Of a stretch of DNA of 14,703 bases, positions 1-14,703 are shown piece after piece (the first letter of the stretch is position 1; the number at the start of each line of letters is the position of its first letter). The DNA is from Armatimonadota bacterium (GTDB lineage: Bacteria; Vulcanimicrobiota; JACPDS01; JBDRKI01), in the NCBI GenBank assembly GCA_043814095.1, contig JBDRKI010000086.1:1-14703 (forward strand), written 5' to 3'. The position numbers are program-made.

Positions 1-3000
1 TAAGACGGGTAATGTAAGGTTGAATTCCCATAAGACAGAAGCAATATTCACAGAATTAGGCGAGCTGGGTATTGTACCTAAAGGAGGCAGTTTCGCTCTT
101 GAAGTAAGGGATACTAAAGAAGGGCTCAAATTCTACATTAACAATACCCCTCTTACCAGAGAACAGACCGATACTGTCTTAAAATTAATAACAATGCACG
201 GTTTAAAGCCTAAGAATATAGATATAGCCGTAAGAAGCGGATTAGCCCTTCTTACTTCAGACGGTAAAGTAGTAAAAGTAATGCACCTGAAAGCTCCTAC
301 AGATACCGCTATTCCGGAATCTGTAAGAACGCATACTAAAACCAAAGCAAAAGCAAACCCTGATAATGTTATTGACTTTAATAAATACAAAGAAGCAAAG
401 AAGAAGAAAACTGAGAAGAAAAAGAAAGATAAAAGCGGCAAGCCGCCTTCCGCACCTACTGCTACAGGCACTGATAAACCGGCTCCGCATAAAGTGCCTG
501 AAAGAAAAATGCCCGCTGCCGCTAAAGAAGCGCTTGCCGCGGCTAAGAAGTGCGCAAAATCTACTCTTGATACTTTTAAAAAAGGTTTGGGTAATATTAT
601 ACCTCAACCCCAAGCTGCGGCTGAAGGGCCGGCAGGTGTAAGCCCGCAGGGTATGAGAGTCCCTGTTGTTCCTCCTATTATGCAGAATAATGCAAGCCAC
701 CCGGGAGGCATAAACCCAAGGCATACACAGACTACAGGCTTGGGAGAAATTGATACTAAATATATGCCTTCATATATAGCAACCGAACCGGTAACAGCCA
801 AGAGTGTATTAAATAAAACACCTACTATCAATAATCTTAATGAGCTAAAAGCAGAAGTAGATAAAACTTACAGCAGATATAAACTTCTTGTAAGCCATGC
901 GGGTGAAGATTATTTCAATGTTGATTCTTTTAAAGGATATCTGCAGGGCTGTAACGCGCTTGATAGATTAATAACCGATATTCTATGGCAGGCAGAGAAA
1001 ATCCCGGGCAGTGAAAAACTTATAGACCGGCTTGTTACTATCAGAGCAAATATGATTATTCTCTGCTATACGCCCCTTTTAAGAAAAGCCGACAACTTAT
1101 CAATGTTAGACATGCTAGATTTTAAAAACGCCTTTAAAAGAAATACTGCCAGCACAACACAAGAAGAGGTATATCTGGCTCTGAATGATCCTGAAAAATT
1201 AGAGATAGATCTGTTTATGCCCAGGCTTGAAAGAGCTTCAAACCTTTTAGATCAATTTAAAAACTTAAACGATCTTAGTTTTGAAGAATTAAAAGAATAT
1301 ATTGAAGCGTGTGAAGTAGCCTGGAATACTGCCGACAAACTTCTTAATCTGAAGAATCTAAAGCCTGCGGATATAGAATTGCTTAAAGCAGAAGCCGATA
1401 AAGCCGTTGAAAATTATAAAGAAGCACTTAAGATAACACTTGAACATGACGGGTTAAACTTAGGCGAAAAATTCTTAATACTCGCCGAGTTTATAAAGAA
1501 TACGCATGAAGAAGTCTGGAACCTTAAAGAACTGCAAAATGCAGCCATTCAGATTCTTGATGCTCTAGTAAAGAAACGCCAAGATGAAAGTAGATCCATT
1601 GAATCTTATACCAGATTAAAGATAAGGGTTAAAGATATATTTAACTCCGACACAAATGAAGCGATATCAGTAGCAATTATAAATACGCTAAGAAATTATC
1701 TTACCAAAAAACTAACAGAGAAAAGTGATAGAAGAACTTACCTGCAAATAGGGCCCTTCTTACAAGAATTCTCTGAAACAGAAAAACGAGGAAACAATAT
1801 TCCAAAGTCTCCTTCTAAAGATAATATTCCAAAACCGCCCTCTGCGGGAAATGCTTCTAAAAATACAAATTTGTGGAAAGCAACAAACGAATTCGCTAAA
1901 AAGGTAGCAGACGGCTTAAAGAATCTGCTGGGAACAGAAGCTGTCACTCCCGAAGGCATAAAAATGCCTGCAGGTATACCTGAAAAACCCGTATCAATGC
2001 GGATGGACGGCAGAGCACTCGGGGCTAATCCTGTAGTAGCTGTATTCAGAAAAGACTTATTACATGTATATTCCTTAAGCTCCAGGGAAAACTTCGGATA
2101 TTCTGATGCATTAGAATACGTAACCGGCTGCAGCCGGATTTATAAAGAATTAAGTACGGCTATAGATAATGCGGGAACAGATACTTCTACAAGGTCAACC
2201 TTAGCAGACCTTAAAAAAGAACTGGTGAATACTATATATCCCGACCTTATAAACTGCTTTGAAAAATTACCTAACCACGACCAGTCCCCGTTCCTGCTTG
2301 AGATTATTAATAACTGCCCTGATGAAATATTTAAAAAACACCTGAATCTTTTAATAACAAAAACTTCTACGCTGGGTGCTGTAGAAAGAGAAAATTTTGA
2401 CATCAAAAACGCGATAAAATACCTCAGGGTATGCAATACCATATATAAGAAAGCTTCCGCTTTTATAGAAGCAGAACAGGATTCTCCCAGTAGAACAAGC
2501 TTAAAACTTGCCCTTGCAGATTTAGATAAAGTCTATACCGATGTTATAAACTGTATTGTAAAATTAGGTAAGAACCAGCAGGCTAGATTTTTATTAAAAT
2601 TTTTATCAGACTGCCCTGATGAAATTTTCAAAAAACAGTTAAACACCCTTACCTTCCTTGCAAGAATAACTATAACCGATAGAATAAGCTCTTTAAATTT
2701 TTATAAAGAAAAGACAGTTTTAAGCGAAGCAGACTTCCAGCTTTATCTTGAAGAATGCAACCGCAGATTTGATGAGCTTACACGCTTAATAGAAATATTT
2801 GAAGGAAAATCAGAAGACAAAAATTACTTACTTGATAGAATAAGATTAATCTATAATGCAATTGATGCCGAATTTGTATTAAAAAATGAACAGGAAAAAA
2901 TAGTTAAAGAATATTACACGGATTTACTGAAAAAGGCGGATGCACTTGCTGATTCACAACAAAAAACAAAACTTATTAATCTTATACATAATTCCCTGCC

Positions 3001-12000: not shown

Positions 12001-14703
12001 AATCCTTGTTATTTTATCTAAATGTACCAAAGTAGACAGGGGCACTTTTTATATTCCGAAAACAACAGAAATTGAAAACGAAGCAAAGACAGAAGGAACA
12101 TCCAAAGCAGAAACTGCAAAAAAAATTAAAGAAATAAAAGACACTGAATACCATAATACTCTGCAAGAGATAGGAAAAAATTACGAAAATTTATATGCGG
12201 CTTTAAGGTCAACTTTAAGTCAAAGACCGGAAACTATAATCGGACTTAGAAATTACATCCGAGAATTAAAACAAAAAGGCATTGATTTTAAAGCTCAATA
12301 CAATTTAACTGCCAAAGAGGTCGAAGCAATATTACTCATACTAAAAAGTGCCCATCTAAGCAAACTAAAAGCACAGTATATGGCCGGCAAACAAAAATTC
12401 GCACCGAATCAACCCGGACTTACTTTCCCGCAGGAAGCACTGCCGGCAGAGCGAGCTACCGGTCCCCTGGCAGAAAAAGTTCAAGAGCCTAAATTAGAGT
12501 CTGCTATTGATACGATAATTACTATGGCAAAACAGCCGCCGGCAGAAACAAAAACAGCAAAACCCTCAGGTGCAGCTGGTGGTGAAAAATACACCATAGA
12601 ACAAAAAGCAGCAGCAATGATACAGATACATAGACAAACCGGCAGATACAGTTCAACAGAAGCTGCAAAAATTTTGAAAAAAGAAAGCAAAGAAATAATA
12701 AATGAGAGCATTATCAGACAACCACTTAACAAATTTATAGAAGAAGCTTCTTTTGAAAAATTACAAGAATGTGCTATAAAAGTTTCTGAAATACTTGGAG
12801 AAACTGTAACGGACGGCGAACTTCTGCTTGCCTGTACCACTAAACATTTTAGAGCCGCATTAACTGACTTAGGAAACCATCTTGCTAAATTTGATAATAG
12901 AATAGAAGCATCGGACATACAAGACATCCTAAAAAAACACAACATCAGAGAAGAAGCTTTTAATGAGTATTTAATAAAATTAAGTAAAAGCAATGCAAAT
13001 CTATCAAAAACGCATAAACTATCCCATGAACAGATAGATAATTTGGCTAAATTACTGACCCCCGATACAGATACTGTGCTCAGACTTCTTATTGAAGATC
13101 CCTATAAATTACAGCCGGAGTTTACAGCAGTACTTAGAGGAGTCTGTGGAGACAGAGCTGTAACCGGAGCCATAATTAAGTTAAGAAACCTAATAAAAAC
13201 ACATAGAGAAGTAGTTGAAAAACTCCTTGCAGATCCACTGGGGGTTGATAAAACTCAAAAACTGCTAAATACACTTGATCCTAAACAAATAGGAATAACA
13301 AAAGCTCCTGCAGAAGCCTCGCCTGAGCAAGTAGTTACATCAACTGTATCTACGGGTGATATCATACACGATAATCTGTCTATAACCGAAAGAGATATAG
13401 AAACTTTATATCACCATTGGATGAACCCGCATATAACTCAGGTTCCAAATTTAACAAATGTAAAAAATCGTTGTAGTCAATTAGCCAAAAACAAGCAACG
13501 GGAACTAATATACAGATTAAACGCACTGGCTAAAAAACGCGGAAAAAACAAAAAGATTGATATGCCTGCTCTTACATGGCTTCTTAGTCTTAATCGAAAT
13601 ATAACCTTAAAAGAAAAAGCCCCTCCTATTGAAGGATCTACATGGAGAAGCTACCCCAAGTCCGCACAGCCGGCTTCTGTGCCTTCGCCAAAACCAGAAC
13701 CCGTATCTGCACCGGAGCAGATTGAAAAAGCGGCATCCGCAAAAGAAAGTATCATAGAAGAAAAATATACTATTGAACAAAAAATATCTGCTATGATTAA
13801 AGCACACAGGCAAACGAAAATTTACAGTCCCGTCAGGGCGGCTCAGATATTAGAAGAAGAACATGGAACTCAAATAAAATCAAATTCTGTCGGCCAGCAT
13901 CTTAACAAATTCATAGAAAAACCAACTACTACAATTGAAATTTTAAATGCTTTAGCAAAAAAACTCGGTGTAAAAACCGAAGAGGTAATACTTGCCTGCT
14001 GTAAACAGCAGTTTAGAGTTTCATTAATTGAATTAGGCAAAGAATTAGCGGATAAAAATATCGGCCTCCCGGAAATAAGGAGCATCTTAAATTCGCATTC
14101 TATTAGAAAACTCCCGGATGAAGTTTTCTATAGATATATCTCAAAACTAAGAGACTGCGAAGCAGATCTTTCAAAAGATTACAATCTCAACCGTGAACAG
14201 ATAACCTATTTAGCCGGTTTATTCGAAAAAGGTAATACCCCGGATAAACTTACAACTGGCGGGACAAGCGCACCCTTGCAGGCTTCCAAAGCAAAAGCCA
14301 ATAAGACAAGAAAAAGAGGGGTATTCCCTGAACCAACACGCCCTGAAAAATTGAGTCATGAAAAAGCGGAATTCAGCCAGTGGGATGACGGCCTTACCGC
14401 TAAAGAACATCTGGTAATATACCTTCTGGAAAACAATAAAAACACTTTTCTTAAAAACCCCAAAAAGTATGTCGCGGATCTTATACACACCTACTGCCAG
14501 AAAAAAATCAAAGCTATTGATAAACTCATACAGCTTATCAAGAATAAAGAGCTTGTTATTCAGGGATTCAAAACCAGAGACATTAATATATTATTAACCG
14601 CGCTGGGCCAAGTTAGAGATGATATATCTAAAAAATCAGGGACAGCGACAGTAAAACAAGACACAGAACCCCAAAAAATAACGGAACCAACGCAAGCAGT
14701 ACC

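Follow-up and report, generated by a model that had tools for sequence, protein, structure and literature searches.

A giant mosaic gene with an array of histidine-kinase cores in an Armatimonadota bacterium

The window analysed here is the whole contig JBDRKI010000086.1 (also named C86; 14,703 nt) of an Armatimonadota bacterium (assembly GCA_043814095.1). It raises the questions of whether a reading frame that fills an entire contig is part of a real gene and what a protein of such a size may do. A preliminary description assigned it to an orphan superfamily of giant, mosaic and cytoplasmic proteins. The terms giant, mosaic and paralogous family hold and are extended below, while superfamily is a generous term, orphan applies in part and cytoplasmic is putative.

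A gene of at least 8,565 codons

The window is a single open reading frame (2..14701, + strand; 4,900 codons) that runs off both ends, in agreement with the earlier account. From the base composition of the window, 332 stop codons would be expected in 4,900 codons and none is seen (the log10 probability of none is -149), while the other five frames contain open stretches of at most 155, 183 and 170 aa. The codon usage correlates with that of the genome's other ORFs at 0.918, compared to 0.457 for a shifted-frame control, and comparison with the young duplicate on contig C32 shows 17 synonymous and 10 non-synonymous codon differences.

Contig ends throughout the assembly overlap by ~141 nt each (k-mer graph). 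The last 141 nt of the window (14563..14703, + strand) recur exactly at the start of contig C106, and neither of the two ends has another partner in the bin. The C106 frame (2..11134, 3,711 aa) is in phase with that of the window across the overlap, and the joined sequence (14703+11136-141 = 25,698 nt) is open at both ends over 8,565 codons, exactly as had been reported. With its 4,900 codons, the window forms the central part of a real gene that is at least 8,565 codons long.

Modules and linkers

The gene encodes no membrane segment and has the architecture of beads on a string, i.e., folded modules are spaced by Pro-rich linkers. Here, five HisKA-type kinase cores are followed by a module related to peptidase family M34 and by four copies of a helical repeat, referred to as R. 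About ten linkers are identified by the criterion of at most 20% hydrophobic residues and at least 10% Pro in a 30-aa window. The first one is long and rich in Pro, Lys and Ala (272..775, + strand; aa 91-258), and the others are located at aa 582-639, 1298-1385, 2573-2656, 3231-3320, 3815-3869, 4123-4208, 4414-4453, 4529-4594 and 4747-4805.

The HisKA and five HATPase_c matches of the preliminary description are reproduced by Pfam, with all five HATPase_c matches above the cut-off. Core 1 (3059..3976, + strand; aa 1020-1325; acceptor His 1034, G1 1253, G2 1276) scores 32 bits for HisKA and 51.8 bits for HATPase_c, and its N box has Asp in place of Asn. The other cores all have the N box: core 2 (4112..5071, + strand; aa 1371-1690; His 1385, G1 1620, G2 1646), core 3 (5822..6727, + strand; aa 1941-2242; His 1955, G1 2176, G2 2199), core 4 directly behind it (6743..7756, + strand; aa 2248-2585; His 2262, G1 2518, G2 2541) and core 5 (8762..9721, + strand; aa 2921-3240; His 2935, G1 3164, G2 3197). 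Although the repeated modules within the window are only 23-40% identical to each other in protein, the catalytic motifs are retained: every core has the acceptor His, G1 and G2, and four have the N-box Asn. The cores resemble class I (HisKA) kinases such as Thermotoga HK853 (PDB 2c2a) in their H box, G1 and G2, but differ from class I sensor kinases in that five cores reside in one chain without a sensor, transmembrane (TM) or receiver domain. An insertion is demonstrated for core 2, where the DHp hairpin has ~90 extra residues between helices 1 and 2 compared to HK853 (E 3.7e-12 against 2c2a_A; query 11-36 aligned to chain 20-45, query 153-317 to chain 72-246).

Cores 1 and 2, cores 3 and 4, and a further pair on C32 are arranged in tandem; core 5 is the nearest relative of the C32 pair, with up to ~48% identity in the CA part. 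In a tree including 34 of the genome's 37 HATPase_c matches, the eight CA domains carried by giants form one group (support 94/91; 96% of bootstrap trees). Database kinases align to the CA half only, at 26-52% identity and mostly over 30-50% of the core, and a phrase-based literature search found no description of kinase-core arrays in one polypeptide. Core 1 is preceded by helical units (2084..3031, + strand; aa 695-1010) that recur before core 3 (aa 1733-2001) and in part before core 5 (aa 2869-2920), and that have no match in Pfam or NCBIfam.

The earlier statement that thousands of residues belong to no family holds in part, since a recurrent module of ~250 aa is a relative of M34, the family of anthrax lethal factor (LF) and the Pro-Pro endopeptidases (PPEPs). 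A profile built from seven copies matches PPEP-1 (E 3e-4; chain residues 24-182 of 198). In Foldseek, rows 1-41 are all PPEP-1, -2 or -3, followed by LF, and the VIA Z is 8-9 for PPEP and LF, compared to ~6 for unrelated rows. The similarity to M34 (Pfam ATLF, PF07737) in profile and fold spans the whole catalytic domain, and the profile also picks up a free-standing ATLF-family protein of 324 aa in the only genome of the same order. Three paralogous genes have an intact HExxH, at six sites in total, and intact copies also have the downstream Glu-containing, EFFAE-like stretch; two genes of the family terminate in a module with intact HExxH. One copy is located inside the N-terminal half of the C32 protein, where the reported absence of Pfam matches is reproduced for the first 2,800 aa.

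In the window's own M34-like module (10682..11443, + strand; VIA Z 9.1 over 149 aligned residues), FRETSYRILH is found at the position of the paralogs' HExxH, i.e., both zinc-binding His are lost, while the downstream stretch FEEFFAS is retained. This copy is catalytically dead. The N-terminal domain of lethal factor is likewise an inactive copy of its catalytic domain, and intact and dead M34 copies coexist in the present family as well. PPEPs have been reported as small enzymes, secreted or anchored, from two Firmicutes orders (PMC8610288). In contrast, the present modules are internal to giant proteins of a diderm bacterium, and a Pro-Pro specificity is putative. Pro-Pro dipeptides are in mild excess (81 seen, ~57 expected by our own estimate from the Pro frequency).

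A second type of peptidase is found on contig C90, where the two previously noted M16/M16_C pairs are recovered by Pfam and an M16 pair carries HxxEH. The downstream part of the window's gene, on C106, encodes three Cys-X5-Arg (CX5R, LMWPc-like) phosphatase-like modules rather than the two LMWPc domains first reported. The four copies of the new all-helical repeat R (11663..14230, + strand; aa 3888-4008, 4033-4115, 4195-4355 and 4587-4743) are confined, within this genome, to the window's gene; the structure model has a pLDDT of 89.6, and fold comparison gave no convincing known fold.

The paralogous family

The window's gene belongs to a set of about 8-10 paralogous genes in one genome, which share modules mosaically and make up ~3.7% of that genome. 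The joins and sizes given earlier are reproduced for C90(-)+C30 (5,055 aa), C56(-)+C61+C25(-) (3,129 aa, complete), C32 (5,533 aa; three HATPase_c and HEAT in Pfam, as stated), C78 (2,075 aa) and C63, although the two C63 ORFs (1,153 and 1,804 aa) are one gene split by a frameshift. That list was incomplete; three gene starts, one gene tail and several mid-size paralogs are added here. HEAT repeats are also found as separate genes beside mid-size paralogs. An N-terminal domain is common to three giants at 62-65% identity, and its beginning is matched by the three further gene starts and its core by four mid-size paralogs.

The first 695 nt of the window (1..695, + strand) share 95.4% DNA identity with C32:54522-55216(-) and 91% with C63:1-524, while the same paralogs are elsewhere 25-40% identical in protein. 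This pattern indicates that the paralogs still exchange DNA. C63 begins with the same 141 nt as the window, so both contigs branch from one missing upstream node. The K/E/L-rich composition noted earlier is mostly that of the genome (K 9.65 vs 9.33, L 9.88 vs 9.34 and E 8.6 vs 6.7%).

Three parts of the family were used in homology searches, generic domains excepted: window aa 1-1000, window aa 3260-4459 and the N-terminal domain. No relatives were found in 1.84 or 5.8 billion proteins, in 300 genomes of the phylum or in JGI metagenomes, i.e., the earlier observation of no homologs holds for the non-generic parts in extended searches. Apart from generic catalytic domains, the family appears to have no relatives elsewhere. 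The term orphan applies to the connecting and N-terminal material and to the architecture; the catalytic modules belong to the HisKA/HATPase_c, LMWPc, M16, M34 and HEAT superfamilies, and giant multi-enzyme proteins are already known.

Possible functions

The preferred reading, a tentative one, is that of a polyvalent multi-enzyme protein that peptidases of the same family may cut. The protein would be made in the cytoplasm with each module acting as an independent enzyme; the kinase cores would autophosphorylate on His, the CX5R modules would dephosphorylate, and the intact M34 and M16 modules of the family would probably cut the flexible linkers, thereby releasing or activating modules. Cutting is proposed by analogy with the zincin peptidases of mobile-element polyvalent proteins and with giant proteins of Omnitrophota. 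MARTX-type toxins similarly hold several effector modules in one giant polypeptide, freed by a built-in peptidase. The likeness is one of concept only; there is no sequence relationship, and Pfam detected no RTX repeats, cysteine-protease domain or type I secretion signal in the giants.

Polyvalent proteins of phages and conjugative elements combine 2-15 unrelated enzymatic domains in a TM-less polypeptide, and a role in processing the polypeptide or as effectors has been suggested for their zincin (lethal-factor-like) modules (Iyer et al. 2017, PMC5512222). The present family resembles them in its TM-less multi-enzyme chain, lethal-factor-like modules and rapid mosaic shuffling. They reside, however, on mobile elements, are delivered with DNA, and carry domains that target DNA, RNA, restriction or the cell wall, whereas the present proteins are several-fold longer and carry kinase and phosphatase cargo, and their contigs show no phage or conjugation genes. 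In Omnitrophota, peptidase domains have been proposed to cut giant proteins into products (West-Roberts et al. 2023, 10.1101/2023.11.21.568195).

We infer that a role in conflict with other cells fits better than housekeeping signalling because of the restriction to one lineage, the many paralogs, the ongoing recombination, the conserved N-terminal domain with variable cargo and the toxin-type peptidases, which form two C-termini of the family. As a counterpoint, the kinases' intact ATP sites would suit purely internal signalling equally well, and no histidine kinase is known to act as an effector. Among the 78 linkers there is no shared cleavage-like motif (the best 9-mer recurs in 5 of the 77 others, mostly homologous ones), which speaks against the polyvalent reading, as do the merely mild excess of Pro-Pro dipeptides, the dead M34-like module of the window and the lack of secretion or mobile-element genes beside family members.

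The main rival is a cytoplasmic signalling mega-scaffold, neither cut nor exported, in which the cores (five here, three in C32) would autophosphorylate and feed some of the genome's free-standing response regulators, while CX5R modules, HEAT and helical repeats would arrange the signal or reset it. This possibility is considered only slightly less likely. It is consistent with the conserved catalytic motifs, the tandem cores, the HEAT repeats, the lack of TM segments and signal-peptide-like starts, and the 26 receiver (REC) matches of the genome, several of which are single-domain proteins and none of which lies within a giant ORF. Against it, the ~27,000 aa of the family contain no Pfam match to a sensor, HPt or receiver domain, and 29 further HATPase_c matches are already available for the 26 receivers. 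Moreover, housekeeping signalling proteins are not usually restricted to a single genome, present as ~10 recombining paralogs or joined to lethal-factor-like and M16 peptidases.

A second alternative, an envelope-anchored or secreted giant of the Omnitrophota type used in attachment or attack, is unlikely. Omnitrophota giants are known with HEAT and HATPase_c modules; HEAT_2 and HATPase_c both rank within their 20 most frequent domains, and a TM helix or signal peptide occurs in 94% of 916 long proteins (10.1101/2023.11.21.568195; 10.64898/2026.06.07.730766). The present family resembles them in its very long ORFs from an uncultured bacterium, tiled unrelated enzymatic domains, HEAT scaffolding and large unannotated stretches, and a low-depth trace of the window sequence in a groundwater metagenome would also fit. 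As the sequence of the largest gene breaks off at both ends, a signal, an anchor or further domains could be present in the missing parts. However, no window with KD19 >= 1.6 is found in C86 and C106, as reported earlier, or in the complete 3,129-aa member (one borderline case in C32), compared to 758 of the genome's 1,978 ORFs, and the two complete N-termini have no signal-peptide-like stretch; the label cytoplasmic is consistent with these data but is inferential. In addition, the Omnitrophota giants are reported mostly to carry SecA_DEAD, sugar-metabolism or adhesion domains, while Pfam finds no SecA_DEAD, dockerin, TSP3 or other adhesion or carbohydrate domains here; arrays of complete kinase cores, CX5R and M34-like modules set the present family apart. 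It has no sequence relation to anything in 1.84 billion representatives, and ATP-dependent kinase cores make little sense extracellularly.

An artefact (a chimeric assembly, a mis-binned contig or a decaying gene not translated as one protein) is very improbable: all members but one are broken at contig ends in shared sequence, the C106 join is one k-mer overlap at an inferred branch point, C63 carries a frameshift and the tetranucleotide similarity of C86 to the bin (0.95) is at the low end of the range (0.926-0.999), but the window is one contig whose internal repeats have, at their low identity, diverged much too far to confuse assembly at k=141, its stop-free length is beyond chance or decay, its codon usage fits the genome, C32 with its ordinary genes shares the 695 nt, the bin is 99% complete with 1.4% contamination, and short contigs that match the window in an independent Logan assembly show no differences from it.

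No T6SS sheath gene was found, and no signal peptide, secretion-system, immunity, phage or plasmid gene lies beside the members with flanks on their contigs. Among the neighbours are a HEPN/NTase pair, LuxC/LuxE/MFS/GNAT genes, an aldehyde:ferredoxin oxidoreductase, aminotransferases and a few others.

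Catalytic modules of the giant frame

The protein encoded by the window is divided into modules by about ten linkers that are rich in proline and poor in hydrophobic residues, i.e., it is a series of independently folded and mostly catalytically intact-looking (predicted) enzymes on flexible linkers. Five of them represent complete histidine-kinase cores of class I, each composed of a hairpin with the acceptor His (DHp) and a HATPase_c part (CA). The cores are arranged as tandem pairs (1-2 and 3-4) and a single core 5, and family-less helical units precede both pairs as well as the single core. 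The acceptor His residues (aa 1034, 1385, 1955, 2262 and 2935 along the open frame) lie where the DHp helix begins, in H boxes that resemble I-R/T-H-D/N/G-x-R/K-x-P. All five cores harbor the G1 (DNGxG) and G2 (GxGxGL) motifs, and the N-box Asn is found in four of them, core 1 having Asp at this position. The five HATPase_c domains listed in a preliminary description of this DNA are all recovered with 45.3-83.1 bits (Pfam cut-off 26.4); the Pfam HisKA model exceeds its cut-off in core 1 only (32 bits), core 2 scoring 17.6 bits. Alignment of core 2 to Thermotoga HK853 (2c2a; E 3.7e-12) is obtained in two pieces, which are separated by 117 residues in core 2 and by 27 in HK853, i.e., the DHp hairpin harbors an insertion of about 90 aa. 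The spacing from the acceptor His to G1 is 219-256 residues in all five cores. Kinases in the databases match the CA half only, at 26-52% identity and mostly over 30-50% of a core.

In a HATPase_c tree constructed from 34 of the 37 matches in the genome (the three weakest were excluded), the eight domains that reside in paralogous giant ORFs, i.e., five on the window's contig C86 and three on C32, cluster together (support 94/91 and 96% of bootstrap trees; none of 500 shuffles was as low). These kinase domains have thus multiplied inside the family. The genome has 26 REC matches, all of which are located outside the giant ORFs, and PAS, GAF, HAMP, TM and HPt elements are absent (Pfam, E <= 0.05, 400-aa pieces of C86 and C106); the giants show neither the fused or adjacent REC nor the sensor input domain that characterize a two-component system. 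The phrases used to search the literature for tandem or dual kinase cores in one polypeptide returned no relevant paper.

The module at window aa 3561-3814 is found at 13 or more sites in the family. A profile of seven copies, A2, matches PPEP-1 (also named Zmp1) in the PDB with E 3e-4 over chain residues 24-182 of 198, i.e., nearly the entire enzyme. The AlphaFold model of the window module has a pLDDT of only 72.6. In a Foldseek search with this model, the top 41 rows are all PPEP-1, PPEP-2 or PPEP-3, followed by anthrax lethal factor, and a comparison using VIA gave Z 8-9 with 149-170 aligned residues for PPEP and lethal factor (module: Z 9.1, rmsd 4.2, 149 aligned) and Z about 6 for unrelated rows. 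The likeness to Peptidase M34 (Pfam ATLF), in both sequence and fold, extends over the catalytic domain. The window copy has lost both zinc-binding His residues (FRETSYRILH, with R-E-T-S-Y at the HExxH site) and is thus a pseudo-enzyme rather than an active member. HExxH is intact in the giants on C32 (aa 4409 and 5444), C90 (aa 3862, which is C30 aa 15) and C78 (aa 892, 1297 and 1860). In the other genome of the same order (G001), A2 finds a stand-alone 324-aa protein (C218:1248-2222, reverse strand; locus L110), which is a clear ATLF member (E 3.5e-16) of the ATLF/M90 type with the motif HEFAH...AEYFAES. Among proteins from outside the genome studied here, this metallopeptidase stands closest to the peptidase module of the giants.

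Downstream of the M34-like module, aa 3888-4743 hold four copies of an all-helical repeat (R) of 120-160 aa, the model of which displays a confident fold (pLDDT 89.6). Repeat R has no sequence match in the PDB and no Foldseek match at E <= 1e-3. The best score of a wide VIA search (Z 6.1), obtained with winged-helix/COR, MntR and LysR DNA-binding domains, lies below the noise level of helical models, so that the idea of R as a pair of winged-helix-like halves is no more than a lead.

The continuation of the frame on C106 harbors three LMWPc-like modules, one more than was described previously. The Cys-X5-Arg-Ser/Thr P-loop is found in all seven giant-borne modules of this type (C106 aa 1186, 2342 and 2712; C32 aa 4772; C30 aa 957; C63b aa 383 and 821). 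Their matches to PF01451 (low-molecular-weight phosphotyrosine phosphatase/ArsC-like; 22.9-33.6 bits) are restricted to the first part of the 144-position profile, which in full includes the general-acid loop, and range from positions 1-40 to positions 1-104; the two LMWPc proteins of ordinary size in the genome (153 aa each) match positions 1-143. As noted previously, TM-like segments are lacking: no 19-residue window with a Kyte-Doolittle mean >= 1.6 is found in C86 or C106, and at the same threshold such a window is present in 758 of the genome's 1,978 ORFs.

Reading frame, joins and family members

One uninterrupted reading frame (2..14701; 4,900 codons) occupies the window and is open at both ends, and the other five frames contain no ORF longer than 183 aa. 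From the base composition of the window, 332 stops would be expected in a frame of this length (log10 P = -149). The codon frequencies correlate with those of the other ORFs in the genome (0.918; shifted-frame control 0.457), and the amino-acid composition is near the genome's own. The first 695 nt display 95.4% identity to C32:54522-55216 (reverse strand) and 91% to the start of C63. Of the codon differences in this young 695-nt duplicate, 17 are synonymous and 10 non-synonymous, which fits a constrained coding sequence. Outside this stretch, protein identity among the paralogs, and among the internal repeats of the window, is only 23-49%, so that the interior of C86 cannot be an assembly chimera.

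The bin comprises 2.50 Mb in 129 contigs (completeness 99%, contamination 1.4%), and contig ends overlap by about 141 nt throughout the assembly, as is characteristic of a graph built with k=141. C86 and C106, both on the forward strand, overlap by exactly 141 nt, these two ends have no further partner in the bin, and the frames agree, such that the single frame of 25,698 nt (8,565 codons, no stop) claimed earlier was obtained again. The remaining joins and sizes were reproduced as well, i.e., C90 reversed with C30 (5,055 aa), C56 reversed with C61 and C25 reversed (3,129 aa), C32 (5,533 aa), C78 (2,075 aa) and C63 (1,153 and 1,804 aa). Because the overlaps equal k exactly, we take the contig ends to be branch points of the graph, and a third path outside the bin may exist at the C86/C106 junction. 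C86 and C63 begin with the same 141 nt, and thus both leave one missing upstream node. The only public run with the window sequence is a DNA run (X1, groundwater metagenome; share 0.05, depth 2), in which none of the identical pieces of 156-206 nt spans the window ends or the C86/C106 junction; no RNA sequencing run holding the window sequence is listed. All family genes but one are broken at contig ends, a practical warning that short-read bins conceal such genes.

In addition to the members listed in the preliminary description, the 3' end of another giant gene is found at C90:11799-13055 (reverse strand; locus L004), where a 419-aa ORF, open at the contig end and with an M34-like terminus, is located directly upstream of the C90 giant, i.e., two giant genes are arranged head to tail. 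Giant-gene starts with the N-terminal domain of the family are located at C127:26476-27801, C48:74151-75272 and C8:15216-16289 (all forward; loci L117-L119). They display 46-56% identity to C56, run off the contig ends and could supply the 5' part that C86, C63, C32 or C78 lacks. Four mid-size paralogs, found at C120:5560-8256 (reverse), C17:14513-17887 (reverse), C122:8998-10677 (forward) and C73:2-1699 (reverse) (loci L115, L116, L120 and L121), are complete with 560-1,125 aa (C120 899, C17 1,125) and match the core of the N-terminal domain. A HEAT-repeat protein directly adjoins the C120 and C73 copies, and a NAGPA (phosphodiester glycosidase) gene is located directly upstream of the C17 copy and of the giant start on C8. 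C63, read earlier as two ORFs (2-3460 and 3451-8862), is one gene with a frameshift inside an M34-like module: at about 3440-3470 (locus L010) a stop and a frame change are found at an A-rich run (...AAAGAAAAGACG...), after which the module resumes in the other frame, such that readthrough would yield 2,957 aa or more. The frameshift could reflect a sequencing error, a true pseudogene or programmed frameshifting.

The N-terminal domain (about 660 aa) is the best-conserved part of the family, with 62-65% identity among C90, C56 and C78. Across seven paralogs it has 23 invariant residues, which include His, Cys, Asp and Arg and suggest that the domain may be an enzyme. The domain is without a known family, and its profile (A1) gave no match in the PDB at E <= 1. 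Altogether, the family occupies about 3.3-3.7% of the genome.

Orphan status and relation to known giant proteins

The protein lacks a membrane anchor in its visible parts, and its gene is one of a multigene family that is private and undergoes recombination. The claim that this family is an orphan is consistent with searches of three of its parts, which returned own-genome proteins or nothing. With window aa 3260-4459, a HMMER search of 1.84 billion representatives found only the C30 paralog and a 4,901-aa entry, which matched end to end and which we regard as the product of the window itself. Window aa 1-1000 matched only the C63 paralog among the shorter proteins in a set of 5.8 billion, and the N-terminal profile found only two own-genome proteins among those of 313-1,523 aa. 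Further, window aa 3260-4900 had a match in 0 of 40 relatives, the N-terminal profile was found in 0 of 300 genomes of the phylum, and scans of JGI metagenomes with window aa 3321-3814 and A1 gave no relative. These results are to be read with the limited reach of word-seeded searches and pattern scans, and with a host lineage that is deep and almost unsampled, a single other genome (75% complete) being available in the order. Among known families, Pfam at E <= 0.05 recognized only histidine-kinase and LMWPc domains in 42 overlapping 400-aa pieces of C86 and C106, NCBIfam had no credible match in seven family-less pieces, and PADLOC gave a single HEAT/ARM match, in C32, from six giant pieces. 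The best ESM Atlas values for window aa 3260-3900 and the C90 N-terminal domain (0.80 and 0.83, respectively) are at chance level; the rows M90/ATLF and PT-TG/MafB/Tle1 are leads only.

Giant genes are known elsewhere, as was pointed out in the preliminary description: multi-enzyme giants with HEAT and HATPase_c are described in Omnitrophota, where TM helices or signal peptides are found in 94% of the giants and 6.4% of them are globular (10.1101/2023.11.21.568195; 10.64898/2026.06.07.730766). The Omnitrophota types (Archaeovorin, dockerin, multi-enzyme) are distinguished by many TM helices or a signal peptide and by SecA_DEAD, TSP3 or dockerin domains. C86 and C106, the gene ends being missing, show no TM-like window and none of these Pfam families. 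Compared to what these sources describe, the present family is TM-less throughout and without sequence relatives, and it contains arrays of sensor-less, complete kinase cores with an enlarged DHp hairpin, combined with CX5R phosphatase-like, M34-like and M16 modules. The giant multi-enzyme kind as such is already known, and globular, HATPase_c-rich giants that stand closer to this family may be among those published.

A second comparison is with polymorphic toxin systems, which are defined by an N-terminal secretion or trafficking domain, a C-terminal toxin domain and an adjacent immunity gene. The family has a conserved N-terminal domain, without a known family, and two of its members end in an M34-like module; no recognizable immunity gene was found near family members, and a HEPN/NTase pair is located downstream of the C32 giant. 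Polyvalent proteins of mobile elements are found in a phage or conjugative context, whereas the neighbors of the family members checked here (on C32, C25, C78, C120, C17, C127, C48 and C8) function in metabolism or in the envelope.

Possible function and genomic setting

We tentatively prefer a reading in which the giant is a polyvalent multi-enzyme protein, the modules of which would act separately and would probably be released by the M34 and M16 peptidases of the family. Zincin peptidases have been proposed to process polyvalent proteins of mobile elements (PMC5512222), and peptidase domains to release the products of Omnitrophota giants (10.1101/2023.11.21.568195). The evolutionary pattern resembles that of conflict systems, i.e., the family is lineage-specific with many paralogs, a conserved N-terminus is followed by variable cargo, toxin-type peptidase modules are found at two C-termini, and apparently dead copies reside beside live ones. 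In lethal factor, too, a dead copy coexists with a live one. Several observations count against the polyvalent reading: near family members no secretion signal, secretion-system, immunity or mobile-element gene was found, the 78 linkers have no common cleavage motif, as a given 9-mer is shared with at most 5 of the other 77, Pro-Pro, the cleavage site of the PPEP subgroup, is present in most linkers in mild excess only, without clear enrichment, and kinases are, to our knowledge, not known as effectors.

If the polyvalent reading holds, about 3-4% of a small, 2.5 Mb genome would be invested in a private, TM-less giant family, which would extend the giant-gene phenomenon past the membrane-anchored Omnitrophota type and provide a natural system for testing whether the giant ORFs of bacteria encode polyproteins that are cleaved by peptidases of their own. 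We know of no earlier case that combines kinase-core arrays, Cys-based phosphatases, and lethal-factor-like and insulinase-like peptidases. The family also adds a distant M34 (lethal factor/PPEP) branch, in a diderm, and contributes a helical repeat that is new and has a confident fold, as well as a variant of the histidine kinases in which the DHp hairpin is enlarged.

The main rival, a cytoplasmic signaling scaffold, is possible and somewhat doubtful: the largely intact kinase motifs and the lack of TM-like segments would fit it, and the lack of REC and sensor domains in the giants would not. Rather unlikely is a new giant multi-effector class, in which the N-terminal domain of about 660 aa would be a delivery or activation module and the recombining cargo (histidine-kinase cores, CX5R phosphatases, lethal-factor-like and M16 peptidases), freed by self-processing, would rewire phosphorylation in another cell, i.e., a prey, host or competitor. 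If true, these would be the first histidine kinases serving as transferable effectors. The alternative at this same level is a self-contained, sensor-less array in which the tandem kinase cores would pair within one chain, for which we know of no precedent. A membrane-anchored giant similar to those of Omnitrophota would need anchors in the missing ends and is improbable given the TM-less visible parts. Both this reading and an artefactual giant ORF, which the codon usage and the substitution pattern render hardly credible even with joins at exact-k overlaps, are less likely than the polyvalent and scaffold readings.

The organism is a diderm (LpxC) that was traced in a groundwater metagenome. 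The genome encodes FlhA and four secretins, and no T6SS sheath gene was found in it. Metabolism is of the anaerobe type, with PFOR, aldehyde:ferredoxin oxidoreductase and full purine synthesis. An SLH-domain protein is present, and the best match of FtsX is a Gram-positive-type model; together with LpxC, these could point, as a guess, to a diderm lineage similar to Firmicutes. In a scan of GTDB genomes, EF-G reached no more than 54% identity, to mixed phyla, and FlaA was found in 0 of 61 of the phylum, in a scan that had no positive control. In addition to the full FlhA on C54, two ORFs of 468 and 430 aa (C4:6322-7311 and C67:7470-8351, both reverse) correspond to the C-terminal cytoplasmic half of FHIPEP only.

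On C8, about 1 kb upstream of the giant start, a 290-aa reverse transcriptase is encoded (C8:13376-14248, forward; L119:4377-5249). A DGR was considered at this site and rejected: the enzyme looks retron-like (YADD, VTG), and no template/variable repeat pair was found, so that a defence element unrelated to the giants is the probable identity. The C32 giant is followed immediately downstream by a pair of the toxin-antitoxin type, which consists of a HEPN protein and a protein with a weak likeness to DUF6036 nucleotidyltransferases (C32:38631-39748, reverse; L003:2132-3249). Directly downstream of the complete 3,129-aa member, C25:2312-8337 (reverse; L008) encodes a GNAT acetyltransferase, a LuxE-like acyl-protein synthetase, an MFS transporter and a LuxC-like acyl-CoA reductase that is fused to an AMP-binding domain, which may together form a small fatty-aldehyde or lipid-modification cluster. 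The 16S rRNA gene (C38:11351-12782, forward; L001) matches all 1,533 model positions within 1,432 nt, so that some 100 nt of the helices normally present seem to be missing from it.
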